Assembly (NCBI GenBank): GCA_002269645.1
Contig: NIVC01002726.1
Span: 1-23,084 of the forward strand
Length of the DNA: 23,084 nt
Direction: 5' to 3'
From: Macrostomum lignano
Taxonomy: Eukaryota
In this document: positions 1-18,253 of the stretch, piece after piece
How positions within the stretch are numbered: the first letter of the stretch is position 1
Layout of the letters: each line of letters opens with the position of its first letter
The notes under the pieces: model-generated
Told to the model about the DNA's origin: nothing
The model's input: the letters and a program-made list of their open reading frames with translations, nothing else
Database searches by the model: none
Program-made: the position numbers and the translations under genes

Positions 1-525
1 ATGAAACTCTTGTACACTGACACAGACAGTTTTATTATGGACATTTCAAACAGAAGACATTTATCAGGACATGCTGCAGCAAAAAGATTTGTTTGACTTG
101 TCTGAGTGATGATGAATCTTTCAGGACACAGAATGGCGATCAAGTGTTTGACGCCACTAACAAGAAAGTGATTGGGAAAATGAAGGACGAGATTGCTGGT
201 GACATAATCACTGAATTCATTGGTTGAGAGCAAAGTCCTATTTTGTAAAATGTGAGTCGTCAGACCCAATTAAAAAATCAAAGGGAATTCCAAAACGCGT
301 GGTTAGGAAGGAAATTAATGAAGCTGAATACAGAGACGCCTTGAATTGCAACAAAAAGACATCACATGAGTTCTCAAAGCTACAATCCAAAAACCATATT
401 ATTCACACAATTCAGCAAAAAAAGATTGGACTGTCAGGTGCAGATAATAAAGATTCATTTTTGATGACAATATTAACAGTCTACCGTTCGGGCACTGGAG
501 ATTAGGTTTAGGAGATTGGGTTTAG
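1..525 (+). pseudogene. polB: Protein-primed family B DNA polymerase, C-terminal part, 4 frameshifts as given (5' end outside the window)
   Basis: Frame-corrected reading: MKLLYTDTDSFIMD/IQTEDIYQDM...FDLSE/DDESF...NKKVIGKMKDEIAGDIITEFIG/LRAKSY...KGIPKRVVRKEI...KKIGLSGADNK/RFIFDDNINSLPFGHWR, stop 523-525. Contains the catalytic YxDTDS motif and the GKMKDE, LRxKSY and KG motifs. Shifts near 46, 107, 222 and 447. Confidence 0.93.
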
Positions 526-578
526 GAGGTTGAGATTAGGTTTAGGTTTAAGAGAAAGTTTAATAAACCTCATAAAAA

Positions 579-979
579 ATGACAAAAAATAACTTTCTTG
601 AAGATTTGGCTAACGAACTGGAAATCCCAAACTTAGAGGAATATTTATGAGGGACACTCTGCCTGATTTTCCTCTAAGAAAAGGAATGCGGCATCATGAA
701 TTTTGACACCACCGATAAGCCAGGATCTCATTGGGTTTGCTGGGTGATTGATCCGATCGCAAGCACAAGTGTTATTACTTCGATAGCTATGGACGGCAGT
801 ACCAGAAGAGCTAAGAAATTATATGAAGGGAAAAAATAATAAAAAAATTTATCGCTCAGACTTTATTCTCCAAGGTCTTAGCAGTGATATTTTGCGGTGA
901 GCTGTGCATGACTGTTTTGTATGCAATGACCAAAACACGAAAGACCTACAAGGAAATTATTCTTGGCTGTGTTTCATAA
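579..979 (+). pseudogene. Adenain/Ulp1-like cysteine maturation protease, about 133 aa after correcting 5 frameshifts; not in the ORF track
   Basis: Corrected reading: MTKNNFLEDLANELEIPN/RGIFMRDTLPDFPLR/ECGIMNFDTTDKPGSHWVCW.../KCYYFDSYG/AVPEELRNYM...FILQGLSSDI/CGELCMTVLYAM...CVS*. Catalytic H (GSHW), D (FDSYG), Q and C (CG) are in the expected order. Shifts near 633, 680, 762, 794 and 892. Confidence 0.9.
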
Positions 980-1688
980 GGGTTCATTGTGAATTTCTTT
1001 GCCGACTTTCTTTCCACATAATGTTGAAGAACTTTCTCGAGTTCATTTCTCAGCTGACTCATGTCATCAGTTACCGACCATGTTCAAGTTCATTCGAATT
1101 GTTTGTTCATAAAGATCCTGAATGGTTTTGAACTCATCCTCTGAAATGAACTTATCCTCGATTGCCCTTGAAATGTACCCTATGATTGAAGTGTGCACCC
1201 CTTTCTCTTTTACTTGCTTCTCCTGTAGCTGCTTTAGTTTTTTCGCCTGTTTCGCCTAATGCTCCAGTAATTGCTGAAATAAGTCCACATGCAGCACCCA
1301 CAGAGCCGAGTGGGATTGCGATTGGGGCTGTGATGACTGGCAACGTTGAGACAGCCGCAGCAGATCCAGATAGAACAGACACAGATCCTAGAATCATATT
1401 GCTGTAGTCGAAAAATTTACAGTGGCTGTTATAGCGCTTAATTTTCTTTGTGTTGTGGAAAATATTTTTTTCAAGATCATCTCGCATTTTTTTAATCTCC
1501 ACCAGTCGAAACTGTTGAGAGTTACAAGTAATGACGGGGTAGAGTTTTTGTTGCTCATATTGAGGTGCATTCAGATTCGGTGCATTCAGGCTTTGTGTGT
1601 TCGAATTCGGTGCCATTGGGTTTGGTGCTGTCGGTATTTTAGGTTCAGCGTATTGAGACTGATCGTATAGAGAATTTTGTTGGGCCAT
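946..1688 (-). CDS. Viral membrane-hairpin protein, about 246 aa after correcting 2 frameshifts, with PTAP and LYPVI motifs
   Basis: ATG at 1688 preceded by an A-run. Hydrophobic hairpin MILGSVSVLSGSAAAV...PLGSVGAACGLISAITGAL. After a shift near 1255 it continues KQAKKLKQLQEKQVKEKGVHTSIIGYISRAIEDKFISEDEFKTIQDLY, and after a shift near 1078 SVTDDMSQLRNELEKVLQHY...PRIISL*. Confidence 0.7.
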
Positions 1689-1779
1689 TTTTTTCTCTAG
1701 AAAAAATAAAAAAAATATAAAACTATCCGGTTTGAAGATCTGTTTTCTTTTTGATAATTCCATCTGCACCGCCGGTTGT

Positions 1780-2589
1780 CTAGGCGGCTCTCGTGACGCC
1801 GGAGGATCGCGAGTCCAGCAGGCAGCGGCTGGGCGGCTGACGTTTGAGAGCGTGCCGGATTACTCCGGCGGGGTCCAGAGCTCCTTCTACTCGATCTGTA
1901 GACATGACCGGACGAGCAGTAGATTCTGCTTCATCAATAGCAATATCACGAAGATTGAGTGTTCTCTCCAGACGATCAAGCCTCCTTATTATTTTACCCC
2001 AAGAGCTATACATTCCGTTTAGATAGCTACTGTGTGATACATCCTTTCTCTTTAATGCTTCAAGTCTTTCTTTGATTCGATCATGCAACGCTGTTGACTG
2101 GTTCATGAACTCTTCTAAATTATTTACTTTACCTGTGTTGGTTGCGACGTTTTCTTTAATTCTATCATGCAACGCTGTTGACTGGTTCATGAACTCTTCT
2201 AAATTATTTACTTTAGCTGTGTTTGTGAAAACTCCTCCTTCAAGAATACGCATCCGTCTATCAGTGGAATTTCCCAGAAGATTAACTGTCGATCTTAAGC
2301 CGTTGATTAGCGAGACTATCGAAGTTATTTCTGACCTTAGTTCATTAGTTGCGTTTAACAACGGCACATAAAGCTTATCACTTTCAAACTTCTGCCTAGC
2401 TACTTTAAGCCTGAGATCTTCCATGTTTATTTGCAACTGGTGCATGGAGCGCTCTAGGGCTTTCAGTCTGTTTTTATTCAGTTTGATCTCTGGGATCTCT
2501 TCATCAGTGTTAATGTAGCGCTTGTCAAGGAAGGAAGTTGTGAGAGTGCTGTTGCCTGTAGTTGACTCACCAGCAAAATTAATAGACAT
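1780..2589 (-). CDS. Coiled-coil viral protein (269 aa), possibly a fibre or spike, with an internal 28-aa duplication
   Basis: Intact ORF with A-run ATG context, heptad-rich middle and two copies of TNT(A/G)KVNNLEEFMNQSTALHDRIKE. Function is inferred only; the GC-rich C-terminal ~40 aa may be out of frame. Confidence 0.7.
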   Translation of the reverse strand: MSINFAGESTTGNSTLTTSFLDKRYINTDEEIPEIKLNKNRLKALERSMHQLQINMEDLRLKVARQKFESDKLYVPLLNATNELRSEITSIVSLINGLRSTVNLLGNSTDRRMRILEGGVFTNTAKVNNLEEFMNQSTALHDRIKENVATNTGKVNNLEEFMNQSTALHDRIKERLEALKRKDVSHSSYLNGMYSSWGKIIRRLDRLERTLNLRDIAIDEAESTARPVMSTDRVEGALDPAGVIRHALKRQPPSRCLLDSRSSGVTRAA

Positions 2590-2605
2590 TTTTTTAAATG
2601 AAAAA

Positions 2606-3406
2606 TTAAAGTAAAATTCTTTTCTCCTTATTAATCATGACAAACTGATAGGGTTGGTTCCACTTTTCATAGCATATGTTAACAAATTCCTCCTGTGATA
2701 TTGTTCTGTTAGAGTTCTTAGCTGGATATGTAATGTGAGCTGGGGCAATGACCTCATTATAAAATCGTTTCAGTCGATCCTGTGGTATGGTTGGGAAAAG
2801 GAGAATCAAATTACAGTTACCTCTAATTGTTTTATTTGGCAGTTCAAACCAGTTTTGGGCAATGTAAATAACATTGCAATTATTATGTCTACCCCGGGTG
2901 AAATAATTTTCTATCTGTTTCTGGGGACCGGTCATGCAGTCATCGAAGACAATCAGGTGCTTTCTCCCCTTTTCTAGTTCATCAGGTTGAGGTAAGAGTT
3001 TAGTTTTAGGATCTATCTGTGGATCTCCATAAGTGAAAACTTTAATGTTTTGCCATTTTTCATTGTCTGGGATGTGCTTTGCGTATTCAGTGGCTACAAC
3101 TTCCGGGTTGCTGTTGAGGTCTTTTTGATGTCTAAAACATTGAATAATATCTTCCTTGTTGAGTTTGTTCTGTAGGCCCGCTACTAGCATTTTATACTCA
3201 TCTTGATACAGAGTGGGTGAATAGATATGTAGTGTGTCATAATCGAGGAATCCAGGTCTGAGGAGCATGTTAAAAACTCTGAAGGTTTTCCCTGACCCAG
3301 ATGAGCCAACAACAATGCATCGGAAGTGCCCTGGAATTATCTCGTTGTGAGCAAATTTTATCTGATTGCGTGTCCAGTGGGGATGAAAGTCGTTTGTGAA
3401 GTCCAT
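2606..3406 (-). CDS. A32/FtsK-HerA-type DNA packaging ATPase (266 aa)
   Basis: Walker A GSSGSGKT, Walker B LIVFDD, and TRGRHNNCNVIYIAQ (Arg finger plus conserved Gln) followed by IRGN. ORF intact. Confidence 0.95.
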   Translation of the reverse strand: MDFTNDFHPHWTRNQIKFAHNEIIPGHFRCIVVGSSGSGKTFRVFNMLLRPGFLDYDTLHIYSPTLYQDEYKMLVAGLQNKLNKEDIIQCFRHQKDLNSNPEVVATEYAKHIPDNEKWQNIKVFTYGDPQIDPKTKLLPQPDELEKGRKHLIVFDDCMTGPQKQIENYFTRGRHNNCNVIYIAQNWFELPNKTIRGNCNLILLFPTIPQDRLKRFYNEVIAPAHITYPAKNSNRTISQEEFVNICYEKWNQPYQFVMINKEKRILL

Positions 3407-3560
3407 TTTTTATGTAAAAAAACTTTTTCTTTTTAAACTTGTGTATTTAAGACGCGTGTGTCTTTTTTCGGGATGTGTATGTGTGTGTCTTTTTTCGACT
3501 AGTCCTACATCCGACTAGTCCTACACCCTCACACCTCTTTTACCGTCAGGGTGCACCAAA

Positions 3561-3939
3561 TTAGTCAAATTTAAAACCGCCTCCTTTCTTATATTCAGCT
3601 CTCATCTTTGCGTAGATGGCTGGATCGACACTATCTGCACTCGGTGCAAGGGGTTGAATATCTGGTATTGATTTCCGGGTTTCATGAACCGTATCTTTAA
3701 TCTTTTTGGCTGCTGTGACTACACTGCCGGCCGCTTCGGCAACGTTCTTGATGTTCTCTTTGTTCTCTCCAATGACCTTAAAAATCTTGGCCCCCTGAGC
3801 GATCAAATCGGCAGGGCCATTCCCAGAGCGTTCTTTTCTTGGATAGTGGCCTGCAGGGAAAAGTCCAGATCCGCGTTTAATGAGATTAAGTTCCTCTTTG
3901 TCATAGTATTTGTCAATGTCTTTTTCGAAAATAAGGCAT
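3561..3939 (-). CDS. Small virion core or membrane-lytic (protein VI-like) precursor, about 125 aa after one frameshift correction
   Basis: AAAAATG at 3939 (MPYF). After a shift near 3925 it reads DIDKYYDKEELNLIKRGSGLFPAGHYPRKERSGNGPADLIAQGAKIFKVIGENKENIKNVAEAAGSVVTAAKKIKD...KKGGGFKFD*, joining the 81-aa ORF of the track. Confidence 0.65.
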
Positions 3940-3955
3940 TTTTACTTGAAATAAA

Positions 3956-5169
3956 TTATTTTTTGTTGAACCGCGAAAGCAGAAGCTCTCTCGCCCTCTT
4001 ATCGATGTATTTTCTCTCAAGCATTTTATTGAGGATGTGAACGAACTCTTTTCTATTCTATCTTTCATTCCGGTCTTTGCCGCTCCTAGAAGAACCGCTA
4101 CTCGCTTGTAGAATTCAGGCATGCCTTTTCCGGAAGAGCTTGGTGGTGATTCGAATGATTGGTCAGAGAAGGATGTTCCTGGTGAGGGTTGCTGTAGCCT
4201 AGGTGTGAATACTCTGTCATTGATTCGCTTCATTCGTTCTGGGGAGAACTGTTCTAATTGTCGCCATTCATCTGGGCGCTGGTTTCTGTACTGGGAAATC
4301 TCATTTGGCCCTGCTTTTTCAAGCGCTTCTAGTACTTGTTCGGGTGTGATTTGTTGCTGTGGCGGTGGAGGTTGTTGTGGTTGTGGTTGCTGCTGTTGTG
4401 GTTGTTGTAGTTGTTGTTTTGGTTGCTGCTGTTGTGGTTGCTGCTGTTGTGGTTGTGGTTGTTGTGGTGGTTGTTGTGTTGGTTGTCTTATGACCTCTTC
4501 TTGATCCGGCAAACCAAACCATTGTTTAAAGTATTTGTATTTTTTAAAATTGTTCAAGACAATCCCTTTTTCATGTAAAATTTTCAAAACACCGTTGTTC
4601 TTGAGCATATCTATGTCCCTATCGAGAGCAAAGGTAACAAGATCTTTGTAATTTTTTAGCTGCTTCTCGGATCTTTTTTTCTGATTTTTAGTCATGTAAT
4701 CAAGTAAAGTTTGAGTGAAGGGGATTCGTTTAGTTTCTGCGCCTTTATTGATTGAAATAGTTTCCTTTGTCACTTCAATGTTGTAATCCGCCGGTTCCCC
4801 GGTAATATTTTTTCGCCAGGCACTAATTCCAAAAATATATTTTCCATCATCCAATACGGGGCCAAAAAAGTTATCCTTCACATTCATCTGCACTGGTTGT
4901 CCTGGTTGCTGAGCCTGTGGTTGTCCCGGTGAAGATGGGATTTTACCCAATGTGTTTTGCAAGTGGCTCTCTTGAATATCATCAACTGCTTCCTTCACAG
5001 TGTCGAGGTTTTTCTTCGCTTCTGTGTATCCGGGTTTGTGAAATTCGGTGGCTGCTTGGACGAATTCATTGTAAGATTGTTGTTCTTTGTTGATTAGCCC
5101 TGTAACTCTCTTTTCTGCCTGCGCCAGCTTTTCTAGTTCAGAGATATGATATGAACTTTTCCGCTTCAT
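3956..5169 (-). CDS. Polinton-associated protein with a polyQ/P tract; true C-terminus in another frame
   Basis: Long ORF with DNFFGPVLDDGKYIFG and a C-terminal GKGMPEFYKRVAVLLGAAKTG. Adding one A near 4050 gives EKEFVHILNKMLERKYIDKRARELLLSRFNKK* (stop 3956-3958), which leaves the next gene's start free. Confidence 0.75.
4352..4486 (-). repeat. Imperfect CAA/CAG/CCA trinucleotide tract encoding QQPPQQPQPQQQQPQQQQPKQQLQQPQQQQPQPQQPPPPQQQ
   Basis: Directly visible (gtt/gct/ggt)n run on the plus strand. Confidence 0.95.
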
Positions 5170-5197
5170 TTTTAAATATTTTTTCTTTTGTTGAAAA

Positions 5198-6489
5198 ATG
5201 AACGATCCCCTGACACCGGTTTTCTACAAAATTAACAAGCCTATTTTGAGTGATGATAGCACAATCAAAGCGACTCAGGTAAGAGTTCCCAGTCAGGAAA
5301 ATCAGAATGAAACTAATTTGGGTCCAGGTCAAACACTGACATTTACATACAATGGATGTTCGTCTTTGGTTAGTGTGCACAGTCTAAGGAGCGGCTTCTA
5401 TATGACGTATCAATTCAAAACTAAAGGAGGCGCAGACGCCGCTCATGCAAATGATGATCTACACAATGCGGATGTCGCACTAACCAGTAATTTCTGGGCT
5501 TATATGTTCAAAGAGTTTAATGTGTCCAATGGAAGTACAGAATTGGAAAGAATAGCAAACTTTGGTGTGGTCTATGATACCCAGTGCTTGATTGAGAACC
5601 CGGATTTTATTCAGATGGGGAGCGGTGCTGGATTCATCCCCAATGAACAGACAGGAGATGAGAATGACCCTGGTTACAAAAAGAGAAAGGAGAGATACAA
5701 CTATGCTCTTGTTGGTGAGAACGATGCTGCTAAGAATCCGCTGTTTAGGTCTGTAGATATTTTTGTACCTTTGAGGTTTATGAGTGGTCTCTGTAATAGT
5801 TTCAATCGGTTGACAAGCAACTTTAGCTACACATTTAGACTGACTAGAGATGATCGGAACAGAGGAATTTGGTCGGGGGCCAATCATACATCGATGGAGA
5901 TTAAGCCAACTAGCGTGGAGCTGTACTTAGAAATTATTGAGCCCAAGACTGCACTCAAAGCTGAATACTTGAAGGCGATTGAGAAAGACATTGATGTTGC
6001 TACAGCTTATATGTGCAGAGATGAGCGGAATGACGCAAGACACAATATTTGCATTAAAGAAGGCTCCTGTAGCAATCCAAGGTACATTATTGTCACTATG
6101 AGGAATACAACTAATGTAGGTAGATATCTACATGGAAACATTCGATCGATTCAACATGAGATCAGTGACAATTTATACCCTGCATTGCCACAAAATGGGA
6201 ATTTCTCGGAGAACAAGATTAGTAAGTTTTACAATGAACTGTCGGACTTGGCTGTCAAAGAGAATAACGGTATTGTTTTGACAACCTTGCAGTATAAAAA
6301 CTATATCCAATATTTGGTGTTGATGTGACTGCTAGACAAATGCCTACAGACAATAGCCCTGTTAACATTGTGACTAATATCGAGTGGAAAGAATTTGGTG
6401 CCGCAACGGCTGTTGATCTGTTTATTATCTATGCATTTGAGAGGAAAATCAAGGTTAATATGATCAATAACTCGTCTAGTAAAGTTTGA
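5198..6489 (+). CDS. Major capsid protein (double jelly-roll, Polinton PY type), about 430 aa after one frameshift correction
   Basis: 376-aa ORF with a beta-rich pattern (IFVPLRFMSG, FRLTR, PTSVELYL, NPRYIIV, LYPALP). Adding one A in the run at 6296-6300 extends it YKKLYPIFGVDVTARQ...DLFIIYAFERKIKV...SKV* (stop 6487-6489). Directly upstream of the minor capsid gene. Confidence 0.85.
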
Positions 6490-6511: not shown

Positions 6512-7369
6512 ATGGAAGCCATAGCCGAAAGACTAAACAACATTGTTTCACACTCTAAGGAGAGCATTCCAATCACTGTAGCGGGTCGCATTACTGAGTC
6601 AAACGGAATCTTCATTCAAAAATTGGAGCAACCACTTCGTTTGGATCCCGAGGCGAATTACCACGTCTATCTCAATGATTTCACTGGGTGGTCAAATGTT
6701 CCCAATGTGACAGCGGAAAATAACAAGTTTTATTACAAATGGAAGCGTACTACAACAGAGGTTGTGATATTTCCTGTCAGCACACAGAGCGTGGATACTT
6801 ATAATTACTTCTTGGAGAAAGTCTTCACTAAACGAAAGCATTTTGAGATACCGGATGAAAGCAAACCAGAAAATAAACTGTTCCCTGTTAGATTAACTTA
6901 TGATCTAACTGTCATGAGAGTTATCTTGCAAGTTCATAAGGACGCAGAGGTAGAGTTTAAAGATGGCACTTGGTATCGCGAGTTGGGATTTGAAAAGAGA
7001 GTTTATGGTGGCGCCACAGACCAAAGCCCGCTGCAGGCGCCTGGCACTGTTGCTGTGTCCCGGCTAATATCCGGTATGTACTTGGCGCCAAATATCGCTG
7101 ACATTGTCAAAGGTTTGAATATATTAATTCGTAGCAATCTGAGCCATGATTGGATATTCAAAGGCAAACGAACCAACATACTTTTTAACATTTCAAACTC
7201 TGTTGCTGGTGGCAAAATGCTTGTGCAAAAGCCGAACCCCGTGAAAAGAGTGATTCTGAGTAATAGAGAGATACATGAAATCGTTCTGCAGTTTGAAACA
7301 GAGGATGGAGTTGGTGTCGATTTTAACGGGGAAGAGTTTGTGCTAACAATTGTTATAGAGAGAATGTGA
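6512..7369 (+). CDS. Minor capsid protein (penton, single jelly-roll), 285 aa
   Basis: N-terminal LEQPLRLD...YHVYL...WSNVPNVTAENNKFYY and C-terminal ILIRSNL...KGKRTNILF...P...IHEIVLQFETEDGVGVDFNGEEFVLTIVI patterns typical of Polinton minor capsid proteins. Intact ORF. Confidence 0.87.
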   Translation: MEAIAERLNNIVSHSKESIPITVAGRITESNGIFIQKLEQPLRLDPEANYHVYLNDFTGWSNVPNVTAENNKFYYKWKRTTTEVVIFPVSTQSVDTYNYFLEKVFTKRKHFEIPDESKPENKLFPVRLTYDLTVMRVILQVHKDAEVEFKDGTWYRELGFEKRVYGGATDQSPLQAPGTVAVSRLISGMYLAPNIADIVKGLNILIRSNLSHDWIFKGKRTNILFNISNSVAGGKMLVQKPNPVKRVILSNREIHEIVLQFETEDGVGVDFNGEEFVLTIVIERM

Positions 7370-7430: not shown

Positions 7431-7670
7431 CTACAACTGCCTTATAACTTCTGCAAAGTTATAGTAGCTGTCGTAATCTTTTACGTAGGTTACTCCATAC
7501 TTATGAAACCAGTGTCTTTGGAGAGCTAGATTAATATTAGGGACATTGATATCAATGCCGGGCCAATATTTTCTCATGTACTCGCTGCATTCTAGTTTGC
7601 ATTGGTATTTGGATTTGTACAATGGATTAGGCTGAGTATAATAAGAACCTGGAGAGACAACTGGAAACAT
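7431..7670 (-). CDS. Small Tyr-rich viral ORF of unknown function (79 aa)
   Basis: Shares the TTTT-N4-AAAAATG start context of the other viral genes and is convergent with the minor capsid gene. Confidence 0.5.
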   Translation of the reverse strand: MFPVVSPGSYYTQPNPLYKSKYQCKLECSEYMRKYWPGIDINVPNINLALQRHWFHKYGVTYVKDYDSYYNFAEVIRQL

Positions 7671-7699
7671 TTTTAGAGAAAATTTAGATTTTTTTCAAA

Positions 7700-8124
7700 G
7701 GGTGAGCACCCTGCGCTGAGGGTTTAAAGTCTTTGGGATCTGGTTTCGCTTTGCAAATTGAATGTGGGGAGAAGAATGCAGATTATTTTCTGATTGTTTC
7801 GAACATGCTATGGGTGGATGTCAGTGGATTATGTAGGACACTTGTTATGCTCTGATAATATAGATGTATTTTGGGGGATAGGTTAGGAGGATTATGGATG
7901 ACGTTTTCGGAGCTGCTATGCTCAGAATAACAGTAGGACACCGGTTGTGCTCTGATTCTGTCGGGGATAATACGGATGGATTTAATGGGATTATGTTCGA
8001 AGTTTTCGGAGCAAGGGCGACCCCCCTTTTTTTCTGATTCTGTCGGGGATAATATGGATGGATTTAATGGGATTATGGAGGACGTGAAAAATTTTGCACC
8101 AGAAGCCCCCTCATGCATTCTACT
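7700..8124. repeat. Probable right terminal inverted repeat region of the Polinton, with a 45-bp subterminal direct repeat
   Basis: Non-coding. 7951-7995 and 8033-8077 are 44/45 identical. Inward-reading end is AGTAGAATGCATGAGGGGGCTTC. The partner TIR is not in the window, so the inner limit is unknown. Confidence 0.55.
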
Positions 8125-8287
8125 GAAGGGGGTTCGATAACTGGACAGCCGCTAACTAACCGCGACTAACTCTGCTTAACTTGCAAGCAGGCGGCGGACG
8201 AACTTTCACATTGCAAGCTCTGAGAACCCTGCTACTCCAAGAGTCAGGCGCGTCATACATGCAGATCCCCGACAGAGTGGCGCTCAC

Positions 8288-8480: not shown

Positions 8481-9360
8481 GATCTCTAATGGGAGATTAA
8501 TATCTGGGTAATGAGATCTCTAATGGGAGATTAATATCTGGGTAATGAGATCTCTAATGGGAGATTAATATCTGGGTAATGAGATCTCTAATGGGAGATT
8601 AATATCTGGGTAATGAGATCTCTAATGGGAGATTAATATCTGGGTAATGAGATCTCTAATGGGAGATTAATATCTGGGTAATGAGATCTCTAATGGGAGA
8701 TTAATATCTGGGTAATGAGATCTCTAATGGGAGATTAATATCTGGGTAATGAGATCTCTAATGGGAGATTAATATCTGGGTAATGAGATCTCTAATGGGA
8801 GATCAACACCTGGATTATGGGATATGTAATGGGAGATCAACACCTGGATTATGGGATCTGTAATTGGAGATTAACATTTGGATGATGGGATCTGTAATTA
8901 GCGATTAACACTTGGATGATGGGATCTGTAATTGAAGATTATTATCTGGGTAATGGGATCTTTTACCTGGATAATGAGATCTCTAATGGGAGATTGACAC
9001 GTAGATGATAGGATCTTTAATTTGAGATTAACACCTGGATGATGGGATCTCTAATTGTAGATTAACACCTCGACGGTGGGATCTCTAATTGGAGATTAAC
9101 ACCTGGATGATAGGATATTTAATGGGAGATTAACACCTGGATGATGGGATCTCTAATGGGAGACTAACACCTGGATGATGGGATCTCTAATTGGAGATTA
9201 ACACCTGGATGATGGGATCTCTAATGGGAGACTAACACCTGGATGATGGGATCTCTAATTGGAGATTAACACCTGGATGATGGGATCTCTAATTGGAGAT
9301 TAACACCTGGATGATGGGATCTCTAATTGGAGATCAACACCTGCATGATGGGATCTACAA
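8481..9360. repeat. 34-bp minisatellite in WDR59-like intron 2, about 26 units
   Basis: Unit GGGAGATTAATATCTGGGTAATGAGATCTCTAAT starting at 8491, 8525, 8559 and so on. About 9 identical copies to ~8800, then the variant GGGAGATTAACACCTGGATGATGGGATCTCTAAT. Confidence 0.95.
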
Positions 9361-10328: not shown

Positions 10329-10969
10329 AGGAAGGACAATGCCTAAAAATTTTCTTTGGTATACAAGCTGGTGGCACTTAAGTGAGGCTCTTCACAGCAA
10401 TTATCCATAGAAGATAATATAAAAAACTTTAAAAAAATTGTATCACTTGCTTTGGTACATAATAATATATATAGAAAAGCTATAGTCTTAAGTTAAAGTA
10501 TGTATAATGCATATAAGAAGACTTAAAAATTTTATACCCTATGCTATAATATAGTGATTTCATTTGCTATTCAAACAATTTTTCTGGCAGATAAATAAAT
10601 TGTGAGTCCCAGTTCCATAGTTCTGGCCTATTGTAAATTACAATATACTTATATAAATAAAAACTAACATAATTTACTTCTTTGAGTAGTTGATATACAA
10701 ATAGTATGCTATAACCTTGCATTACTTTTATACTTTATTTATATGTATACAATATAATAAATAATAATAATAGTTGTGCAAATCATAAGACTTAAGAATC
10801 TGCTGAATTATATAAGTCATATATAGATATGTATACTAGCAATCTTCGCCCCCCGATGGGGGACATCTGGATAGAATCTCTGTTCTCTACAAGTAACAAA
10901 AAAACAGCCAAAAATCCTTCAAAAAGACAACAGACAAACTGCTCAAATGAAGTGCATTGCAAAAAGAAA

Positions 10970-11393
10970 TCATCCCAAGACCGCAAGCATCCCCCAGATA
11001 GCAAGCATCCCCCAGATAGCAAGCATCCCCAAGATAGCAAGCATCCCCAGATAGCAAGCATCCCCAAGATAGCAAGCATCCCCCAGATAGCAAGCGTCCC
11101 CCAGATAGCAAGCATCCCCCAGATAGCAAGCATCCCTCAGATAGCAAGCATCCCCCAGATTTCAAGCATCCCCCAGATAGCAAGCATCCCCCGGATAGCA
11201 AGCATTCCCCAGAGAGCAAGCATCCCCCAGATAGCAAGCATCCCTCAGATAGCAAGCATCCCCCAGATAGCAAGCATCCCCCAGATAGCAAGCATCCCTC
11301 AGATAGCAAGCATCCCCCAGATAGCAAGCATCCCCCAGATAGCAAGCATCCCCCAGATAGCAAGCATCCCCAAGATAGCAAGCATCCACCAGA
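10970..11393. repeat. 18-bp tandem repeat, about 23 units
   Basis: Unit CCCCCAGATAGCAAGCAT, with one 17-bp unit near 11045. Confidence 0.95.
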
Positions 11394-11477
11394 CAATAAG
11401 TAGCTAGTGCGACAATTTCCTTAGCATTATAGCGGCTCCTTTAAAATTCGCTTACTTTTACGTTTGAAATTGTGTAT

Positions 11478-16999: not shown

Positions 17000-18253
17000 A
17001 ATAAGGCCAAAAACTAAGAACGAGTACTGGAGCACAGACAGTTACTATAGTGCTCTGTACTTTCAAGCACCTCAAGCTCTCTCTAGAGACTGCTTCAAGC
17101 AGCTACTTGGTCTGCTCCATTTCTACGATTGCGCTAAGAATCTAATTGTCAATGATCCTCTCTTTAAGATCCATCCATTGCTGCAGGCTTTGAGAGATGC
17201 TTGCATTAATGTGTATAGGCCTAAGGAGGATATGAGCATGGATAAGTCTTTGGTGTTGTACAAAGGTCACCTGCGCTTCAAACAATATATTCCAACAAAG
17301 CAGGCTAAGTATGGAATAAAGCTATATTGTGCATGTGAGGCCAAATCAGGCTACCTGTACAACTTCTGCATTCACTTAACCCCAGAGGAGAACCACTGGT
17401 TTGATGAACAGTTGCAGGGAGACAATCCGTCCTTTAGTGAGAAGATTGTTATTGAGCTCTGCTACAACTAGCTGCACCAAGGCTACTGCATCTTTGTCAA
17501 CAAATGGTTTGGTTCCTATTGGCTGTCAGAGTACTTGCTCACTCAAGGAATGCACCTGACTTGTACTATCTGGGCCAACCAAGGTATGCCAATTGAGCTC
17601 AGACAGCTGCACATTCCACCTAATGATGTCACCTTCATGCACAAAGATAGGATGCTAGCTGTCAAGATTGTTGAACAAAAGGAGAGTGGCCTGAAGACTC
17701 TATATTTGCTAGACACAAATGAGGTGACTGAGAGTGTTCAAACCAGATGCACGGTTTGTAAAGGAGCAGAAACAGTGGTGCAGAAGAGCAGATCAGTTCT
17801 CACCTATTATTGGTGCATGGGTGGTGTTGACAGAATGGACAGTCATCTACAGCCTCATCTGCCAGGGAGGAAAACTATGTAAGTGGTTTTTTAAGCTTGG
17901 CTTGCACCTATTTCTTCAAATGATTCATAACACTTGGATTATGTATAGCTGGTGCAATGGAGAGAAAACATTTGCCAAGTTTCTTAGGCCAGCATTTGGT
18001 AGCTGGTGGAGCATACCAGAAGGAGCGAGCAGGAAGCACCCAGTCACTGCCATCCAAGCCACTCCAGGTGGCCAAGTCAGTCCACACTTTCTAATGAAGA
18101 TTGTGGTGTGGGACAGTAAGCCAAGACCCAACAAAGGACTGCCATGTCTGCTACAGAGCTGGAAGCAGCAAGTGCATGGTCTATTGCTTTCCTGAGTGTC
18201 CAGGGGAACCAGGGCTCTGCTTGGAAGCCTGTTTTCAGCAATGGCATACCTGA
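17000..18253 (+). pseudogene. piggyBac (PGBD4-like) transposase fossil
   Basis: EYWSTD...LSRDCFKQLLGLLHF...DPLFKIHPLL...MSMDKSLVLYKGHLRFKQYIPTKQAKYGIKLY...SGYLYNF; FVNKWF; MGGVDRMDSHL...KWFFKL; C-terminal CHVCY...ECPGEPGLCLEACFQQWHT*. Stops at 17469 and 17880, frameshifts, and the second catalytic Asp reads Asn. TIRs not found. Confidence 0.9.

Follow-up and report, generated by a model that had tools for sequence, protein, structure and literature searches.

A Polinton of Macrostomum lignano encodes a membrane hairpin protein whose N-terminus carries two short motifs, P[ST]AP and a YPxL-type motif, which, judged from sequence, very probably bind the UEV domain of host TSG101 and the V domain of host ALIX. 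Conservation of the motifs makes ESCRT recruitment by the hairpin protein a well supported prediction, and by analogy with the orbivirus protein NS3 we lean towards seeing it as an ESCRT-recruiting exit adaptor that would work in the same way. Like the first-pass annotation of this DNA, we infer non-lytic exit or vesicle cloaking.

The Polinton and its hairpin gene

The window (the whole stretch of DNA analysed, 23,084 nucleotides) contains the right part of a Polinton, from a polymerase remnant through to the terminal repeat, with the following features:

1–480, forward strand: 3' remnant of a B-family DNA polymerase gene, broken (YxDTDS motif read in the matching stretch of sister copies)
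560–945, forward strand: adenovirus-type protease gene, broken, convergent with the hairpin gene (a sister-copy ORF matches Peptidase_C5, E 1.6e-4, over the cut-off)
946–1256, reverse strand: basic stretch and helical tail including DKFISEDEF (1156–1130), in other frames, broken (profile positions 88–137 in frame 2, E 2.3e-7)
1152–1688, reverse strand: open frame as read, 178 codons, matching the family to about residue 144 and then out of frame (core-only profile positions 1–87 in frame 1, E 1.7e-25)
1257–1403, reverse strand: uncharged Gly/Ala/Ser-rich hydrophobic hairpin, residues 96–144, turn near 115–117, two membrane passes predicted (AlphaFold and hydropathy)
1404–1511, reverse strand: basic helix ahead of the hairpin, residues 60–95, where the conserved core begins (family alignment, AlphaFold, flank charges)
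1512–1688, reverse strand: predicted disordered N-terminus, residues 1–59 (AlphaFold model of a natural open copy)
1530–1544, reverse strand: LYPVI, YPxL-type late-domain motif, exact in the window letters (117/157 family N-termini, shuffle mean 0.8)
1623–1634, reverse strand: PTAP, P[ST]AP-type late-domain motif, exact in the window letters (61/157 family N-termini, shuffle mean 0.8)
1780–2589, reverse strand: coiled-coil ORF directly upstream of the hairpin gene (ORF list, Pfam scan)
2606–3406, reverse strand: A32-type packaging ATPase (Pox_A32, E 7.5e-7, over the cut-off)
3913–5169, reverse strand: Gln-rich ORF (ORF list, sister comparison)
5198–6328, forward strand: double jelly-roll major capsid protein, shorter than its 428-aa sister copies (DJR-like_dom, E 2.9e-4, below the cut-off)
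6512–7369, forward strand: likely minor capsid protein (penton), from position and size, without a Pfam match
7433–8125, no strand: terminal repeat region of the element (matches the sister inverted repeat pair L041:3341-4132 and L059:3422-4290)

Own-genome copies of the hairpin gene sit in a Polinton (adintovirus-type) context. Among the hallmarks checked, the A32 ATPase, the adenovirus-type protease and the double jelly-roll capsid are present, a DJR-like_dom match among the element's capsid copies (E 2e-5) falling just under the cut-off; a protein-primed B-family polymerase is suggested by YxDTDS in sister fragments, although three scanned fragments gave no polymerase Pfam match. A sister element, followed across 30 kb, is bounded by inverted repeats (about 750–950 bp, 91–94% identical), and the window matches one arm of them. 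Sister locus L059 also encodes an rve integrase (E 2.4e-8, over the cut-off), a feature of Polinton membership that is missing from the window because the window contig begins inside PolB. The Gln-rich ORF is presumably a PZ-type core gene.

Several further observations concern the element and its surroundings. The integrase gene of L059 (221-1258, reverse strand) and a parvovirus-type PLA2 gene (1289-1789, forward strand) lie beside the terminal repeat, and the polymerase region of a sister Polinton has received an LTR retroelement whose gag-pol frame is open over 1320 aa (L042:2241-6203). The coiled-coil ORF, which has no family assignment, contains an internal duplication of about 21 residues. 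The major capsid protein has one LYPAL, found in two sister copies too, which may be chance or a capsid-borne ALIX site. Right past the element, at 8490–9340, lies a tandem repeat with a unit of about 37 bp, followed at about 10950–11400 by a 21-bp tandem repeat readable as an open frame and, from 11441 onward, by a long 23-bp satellite of at least 117 overlapping copies; a broken piggyBac-type transposase relic with DDE_Tnp_1_7 matches occupies 17232–18195 (forward strand).

The first-pass annotation read 946–1688 as one gene, and much of its description is borne out in the window letters: the start codon (ATG at 1688, reverse strand), the exact PTAP (residues 19–22, 1634–1623) and LYPVI (residues 49–53, 1544–1530), the Pro-rich N-terminus (also rich in Gln and Asn), the basic coil, present as a basic helix before the hairpin, and the Gly/Ala/Ser-rich hydrophobic stretch (residues 96–144). 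The single frame did not hold up, as the ATG frame departs from the family sequence directly past the hairpin and ends at 1154–1152 after 178 codons, while the helical tail with DKFISEDEF sits in another frame; the breaks lie at about 1257–1235 and near 1071. They reflect either decay or assembly error; contigs of four runs differ from the window by many single-base indels, so that either cause would fit. Such indels are dense over positions 1–6400, where they break the polymerase, protease, hairpin and capsid genes, and contigs of several runs vary at the same spots. The contigs covering the gene come from four runs of four studies, with the copy not distinguished and the RNA status guessed; none of the runs listed for the gene is recorded as RNA. 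The broken state of this copy was missed in the first-pass annotation, as were the SLATT-like core and the relatives outside Polintons.

The same genome holds at least 150 scored matches to the gene among 717 candidates. At the 30 best loci, the window included, the tail is in frame in 21 and not in 9, P[ST]AP is found in 29 and the LYP motif in all 30. A natural open copy (L025) served as search query in place of the broken window copy. The terminal Ile of the window's LYPVI is a minority form (last residue across the family: L 94, I 14, V 14).

Conservation of the two motifs

The family set comprises 157 distinct proteins (8, plus the best 150 of 161, with one shared) with a median pairwise core identity of 27%. 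Each homologue was split at the start of the core, and motifs were counted in the unalignable N-terminus. The pattern [LIVM]YPx[LIV] occurs in 117/157 N-termini and P[ST]AP in 61/157, against a mean of 0.8 and a maximum of 4 for either motif in 1000 shuffles; the core plus tail of the same proteins contains the YP motif 0 times and P[ST]AP twice. Conservation in homologues had been proposed earlier as a check, and at least one motif is indeed present in 126/157 proteins, or 116/121 of those with an N-terminus of 18 residues or more. Among the 31 homologues with neither motif, 17 have an N-terminus shorter than 12 residues or none, and these may be incomplete sequences or may genuinely lack the motifs.

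Short motifs in a Pro-rich region could arise by chance, as the first-pass annotation cautioned, and the first search query included the N-terminus, so that the enrichment could also be an artefact of a motif-holding query. The caution is fair for one PTAP in one Pro-rich protein and fails for the family as a whole. Near-miss motifs in the 157 N-termini stay close to shuffled values (P[^ST]AP, 5 against 4.0; PPxY, 7 against 3.5) or are absent (Phi-[FWH]-P-x-Phi, 0), with P[ST][^A]P mildly raised (18 against 8.4, maximum 20), and an unbiased count of words in the N-termini places PSAP (43), PTAP (19), LYP.L (51) and IYP.L (30) at the top. When homologues are rescored on the core only, 109 hits are still significant, 81 of them with the YP motif and 39 with P[ST]AP, which means that search bias is not the cause of the enrichment. 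After clustering at 45% identity, the YP motif is found in 65/89 clusters and P[ST]AP in 35/89. As a natural background, other open stretches totalling 36,802 residues contain 4 YP-type and 2 P[ST]AP motifs, where the 4,318 residues of N-termini contain 117 and 62. As shuffles, near-miss motifs, core-only rescoring, clusters and natural background all reject it, chance is excluded for the family, and we regard an origin of the motifs in chance or query choice as extraordinarily improbable.

The distance from the YP motif to the core ranges from 9 to 55 residues, and in the 52 proteins with both motifs PSAP comes first in 33 and LYP in 19. On a core tree (a quick one of 152 rows and 140 columns, weakly resolved) the motif orders imply 23 and 14 changes, and well-supported branches alone require 7 and 5 of them. 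With order and spacing shifting in this manner, the motifs behave like selected short linear motifs. Two own-genome copies (L015 and L055) carry tandem repeats of P[ST]AP, and a second own-genome subfamily with a different N-terminus nevertheless has P[ST]AP and LYPVI in 12/12 loci read. Ten further homologues from a later search all carry a motif, fused as YPTAP in five and with ASAP beside the YP motif in three; ASAP in an iridovirus protein is reported to bind Tsg101 (PMC4880917, available portion).

Predicted topology and putative host partners

An AlphaFold run on the natural open copy with 146 sequences (mean pLDDT 82.6) gave a model of three helices (57–114, 118–179 and 184–236) preceded by residues 1–56 without secondary structure, block pLDDT being 54–67 over residues 1–50. 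Measured in 153 proteins, the hairpin has a median of 49 residues, zero charges and 42% Gly/Ala/Ser, with a maximum Kyte-Doolittle 19-mer of 2.0. Its flanks are basic (medians of 7 and 6 Lys/Arg) and its loop is uncharged; a signal-peptide-like hydrophobic window was found in only 1/141 N-termini, and a start suited to N-myristoylation (MG) is not enriched (2/153). Basic flanks mark the cytosolic side of a membrane protein under the positive-inside rule. Since the flanks are basic and a signal peptide is lacking, the motifs are predicted to be cytosolic, in a disordered N-terminus of a protein with two membrane passes and both ends in the cytosol. A luminal N-terminus, one of the cases that the first-pass annotation named against itself, is unlikely by the same features.

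The tail had been described as EF-hand-like on account of DKFISEDEF. Canonical EF-hands have acidic or polar ligands at loop positions 1, 3, 5 and 12; the tail motif was found in 132/154 proteins, and in 128 of these 132 the position-1 Asp and the position-3 D/N/S are both absent. We rejected the EF-hand reading in favour of a helix cap. One homologue (P0126) has a histidine-phosphatase domain at residues 189–249 (E 1.3e-12), either a fusion or a gene-calling artefact.

Both putative partners are encoded by the host genome (G000), which has ALIX V-domain and TSG101 UEV-domain genes, both over the cut-off. A full-length ALIX with the source label flatworm, which shares 99% identity with a G000 exon, retains the arm-2 stretch conserved in other ALIX proteins, which we take to be the stretch that binds YPXnL. 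The ALIX loci (contigs C3039/C2509/C1209) and TSG101 loci (C629/C1162/C1163) are present in three assembly copies each, and paralogue hits behave likewise.

Relatives of the hairpin core

Compared with Pfam, the core matches no family over the cut-off. The NCBIfam family SLATT_1 matches 33/146 members at E<=0.01 (best 2.7e-7) and SLATT_4 matches 10/146; per-protein SLATT_1 scores lie below the curated cut-off (20–26 bits against 41, from the scores of 3/15 proteins), as does another SLATT score (27 bits against 29.5). The SLATT architecture of two adjacent transmembrane helices followed by a helical cytoplasmic region is present in prediction, and the core appears weakly SLATT-like. Other weak matches are to the RTX N-terminus (22/146 members), an ApoL-like hairpin and, best in a sequence-profile search of the PDB, AopB (E 2.8e-4). 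Foldseek returned 0 hits against the PDB at E<=0.001, and the best VIA-align match (Z 11.7, rmsd 2.5, 121 aligned) is tied among unrelated long helical hairpins; on the predicted model, the PDB matches look like generic hairpins of no specific fold. The top three of the BFVD fold search are invertebrate iridovirus proteins (S6DF61, A0A068QKD3 and A0A5B8RH66), with SLATT-annotated giant-virus proteins next, and the Atlas look-alikes are weak, being clusters without names (score 0.92–0.93, recognition 2175).

A pore or lysis effector under ESCRT regulation is the main rival to an exit adaptor. The protein would be a SLATT-like pore former that either serves lytic release as a viroporin or acts against co-infecting giant viruses as a suicide effector, and the ESCRT motifs would set its turnover via multivesicular bodies, or would soak up ALIX and TSG101 so that membrane repair fails. 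Counting against an exit adaptor, a pore fits better than a budding adaptor with the weak SLATT likeness of the core and with the weak matches to pore-forming hairpins (RTX, ApoL, AopB); SLATT-annotated giant-virus proteins are also among the fold hits, and the SLATT and holin-like genes of polisuviruses have been proposed to act in abortive infection or lytic egress (10.64898/2026.10.13.758929, available portion). We nevertheless hold this alternative to be unlikely: the SLATT scores stay below curated cut-offs, composition alone predicts hairpin matches, no plasmid relative was found for P0020 (the member with the best Pfam SLATT hit), and two ESCRT entry points kept in shifting order would be more than turnover usually needs. 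The two activities can also coexist, as NS3 may itself be a viroporin (PMC7409164, in the part available).

Outside the own genome, locus searches in viral_contigs with A1, P0158, A4, A5, P0222 and A7 and with a neighbouring helicase gave no confirmed relative, and neither did a first metagenome scan. A second scan found two loci, each encoding a homologue with the motifs (E 1e-24 and 5e-22 against the core profile), in both cases fused as YPTAP (L045:4424-5056 and L046:5719-6333). These contigs encode DUF5767, DUF5772, a GT90 protein and an SF2 helicase, with no Polinton hallmark among the 16 ORFs scanned, and on the strength of these families we take them to be giant-virus-like, which agrees with the Atlas look-alikes and the BFVD ranking. 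Polinton context was read for own-genome copies, and the outside loci read are these two, both non-Polinton. The hairpin family thus seems to span Polintons and large DNA viruses. The homologue clusters include one named coral protein (Oculina) and multi-copy clusters on long contigs; none of the 30 homologues looked up carries the name Cupiennin or PW. The gene family has probably been catalogued already under a non-functional name (SLATT, Cupiennin or PW).

A possible route of exit

The route that we favour would begin with the hairpin anchoring the protein in a membrane, both ends in the cytosol, where the N-terminal motifs would call in ALIX and ESCRT-I. The basic helical tail might contact and gather capsids or cluster the protein, and ESCRT-III would then cut the neck, particles leaving in host-derived membrane. 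Scission could take place at endosomes, at the plasma membrane or possibly at the nuclear envelope. Capsid contact and particle release, taken as one joint claim, seem somewhat likely. In favour of exit, the best fold matches are iridovirus proteins, and iridovirus budding uses ESCRT (PMC4880917, available portion). Against it, a particle wrapped in membrane would still have to enter the next cell, and late-domain motifs can merely route a membrane protein to lysosomes or exosomes.

Herpesvirus nuclear egress proteins are the model for a different role, that of an inner nuclear membrane protein recruiting ALIX and ESCRT-III for the crossing of the nuclear envelope by capsids assembled in the nucleus. 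Motifs and topology are equally compatible with this role, the hairpin flanks are very basic, an integrating, adenovirus-like element could plausibly assemble in the nucleus, and more N-termini carry the ALIX motif (117) than the TSG101 motif (61). However, P[ST]AP and ESCRT-I are typical of endosomal and plasma-membrane budding, and the relatives lie on contigs resembling those of giant viruses, which mostly assemble in the cytoplasm, so that we think a nuclear role improbable.

Entry deserves consideration as well, as the hairpin gene adjoins the protease gene, own-genome copies end in an Arg-rich tail, and a 'Macc' class with holin-like hydrophobic domains has been proposed for these viruses (10.1101/2024.03.25.586562, available portion). 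The protein would then be a virion-packaged, membrane-active core protein akin to adenovirus protein VI, its motifs acting on post-entry endosomal repair. We consider this quite improbable: adenain-like sites are not enriched (5/157 N-termini against 3.8 in shuffles), a 49-residue uncharged hairpin would be hard to pack in a membrane-free capsid, and the sister element already carries a PLA2 gene. PLA2-like genes are associated with virion modules of the Alpha class and with the disruption of membranes during entry (PMC8502044, in the part available), and with this class present in the sister element exit therefore remains as the free role.

It is conceivable, if short of probable, that animal Polintons possess a dedicated, ancient ESCRT exit protein that they share with iridovirus-like giant viruses, and that extracellular vesicles carry them about as quasi-enveloped particles. 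Polintons occur widely in animal genomes and change hosts, yet their particles were unobserved as of PMC8097293, and several of their conserved genes are without a function (available portions of the sources). If true, quasi-enveloped travel would explain why sightings of free Polinton virions are so rare, and also how an element can pass to another cell or host while the cell it resides in survives. With a conserved pair of ALIX and TSG101 motifs carried by a membrane protein, Polintons would have an exit mechanism that is concrete and cheap to test.

Comparison with known systems

A link of Polintons, adintoviruses or Mavericks to ESCRT or vesicle budding was not found in the literature searched, which excluded most subscription papers. 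The term ESCRT is absent from 10.1101/2025.02.07.637071, 10.64898/2026.10.13.758929, PMC11161782 and 10.1101/2024.03.25.586562 (term look-up), and the available part of PMC9683012 does not mention cupiennin, gasdermin or transmembrane. Orbivirus NS3, hepatitis A virus and retroviruses already make use of ESCRT motifs, so this is not a new kind of system. The part not found in the literature searched is the presence of this strategy in Polintons and in relatives on giant-virus-like contigs.

The adintovirus 'Cupiennin' and Maverick PW genes, compared by description only and from partial sources, are, like the hairpin gene, conserved, function-unknown genes of these elements and candidates for membrane activity. 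PW sequences may look like the hairpin family. The vertebrate Maverick pw gene lies between the minor and major capsid genes, whereas the hairpin gene lies between the coiled-coil ORF and the protease; and Cupiennin is a marker of the Beta class, whereas the Polinton here has an Alpha-class PLA2 gene (PMC8502044, available portion). SLATT proteins share with the hairpin protein a two-helix membrane hairpin followed by a helical tail, the HMM and fold matches being weak. SLATT genes are labelled on the Hydra and Stylophora adintovirus maps (PMC8502044 Supplementary Fig. S2) and listed for polisuviruses (10.64898/2026.10.13.758929), both sources being available in part; the functions guessed there are pore, defence or lysis, and late-domain motifs and ESCRT are not mentioned in those parts. 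The three iridovirus proteins align over most of their length (BFVD E 2e-6 to 2e-5, 17–21% identity), but with a high rmsd of 18–34 Å, and long helices match easily.

Among systems with known late domains, hepatitis A virus is alike in that a nominally naked capsid leaves in host membrane through an ALIX-binding YPXnL (PMC8402826, available portion), and differs in having its motifs in the capsid protein VP2, without a membrane anchor. Retroviruses, where P[ST]AP is a ligand of the TSG101 UEV domain and YPxL-type motifs are ligands of the ALIX V domain, share the motif pair (HIV-1 p6, PTAP and YPXnL; EIAV p9, YPDL; MLV, PSAP and LYPAL; PMC8402826, same portion), and the exact words YPDL, LYPAL, PTAP and PSAP are all found among hairpin family members. 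In retroviruses, however, which are enveloped RNA viruses, the motifs belong to the structural polyprotein Gag, while the Polinton, a jelly-roll DNA virus, has them on a separate integral membrane protein.

The closest parallel to the proposed function is NS3 of bluetongue virus (BTV), also a protein of a non-enveloped virus with two membrane passes, an N-terminal cytosolic PSAP for TSG101, a predicted coil, and polybasic motifs before the first transmembrane segment (PMC7409164, in the part available). According to the same source, NS3 has PSAP and PPRY as late domains, binds capsid through its C-terminus, serves non-lytic exit and may act as a viroporin. Homology to orbivirus NS3 is unsupported, Orbi_NS3 (PF01616) matching 1/146 members (E 0.0022, 18 bits against 27). 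NS3 pairs PSAP with PPRY (for NEDD4), whereas the Polinton protein pairs PSAP with a YPxL-type motif and has PPxY at background; and NS3 has a 21-residue glycosylated luminal loop where the hairpin protein has a tight uncharged turn. The hairpin protein is on this comparison not a member of the NS3 family, and would be one that works like NS3.
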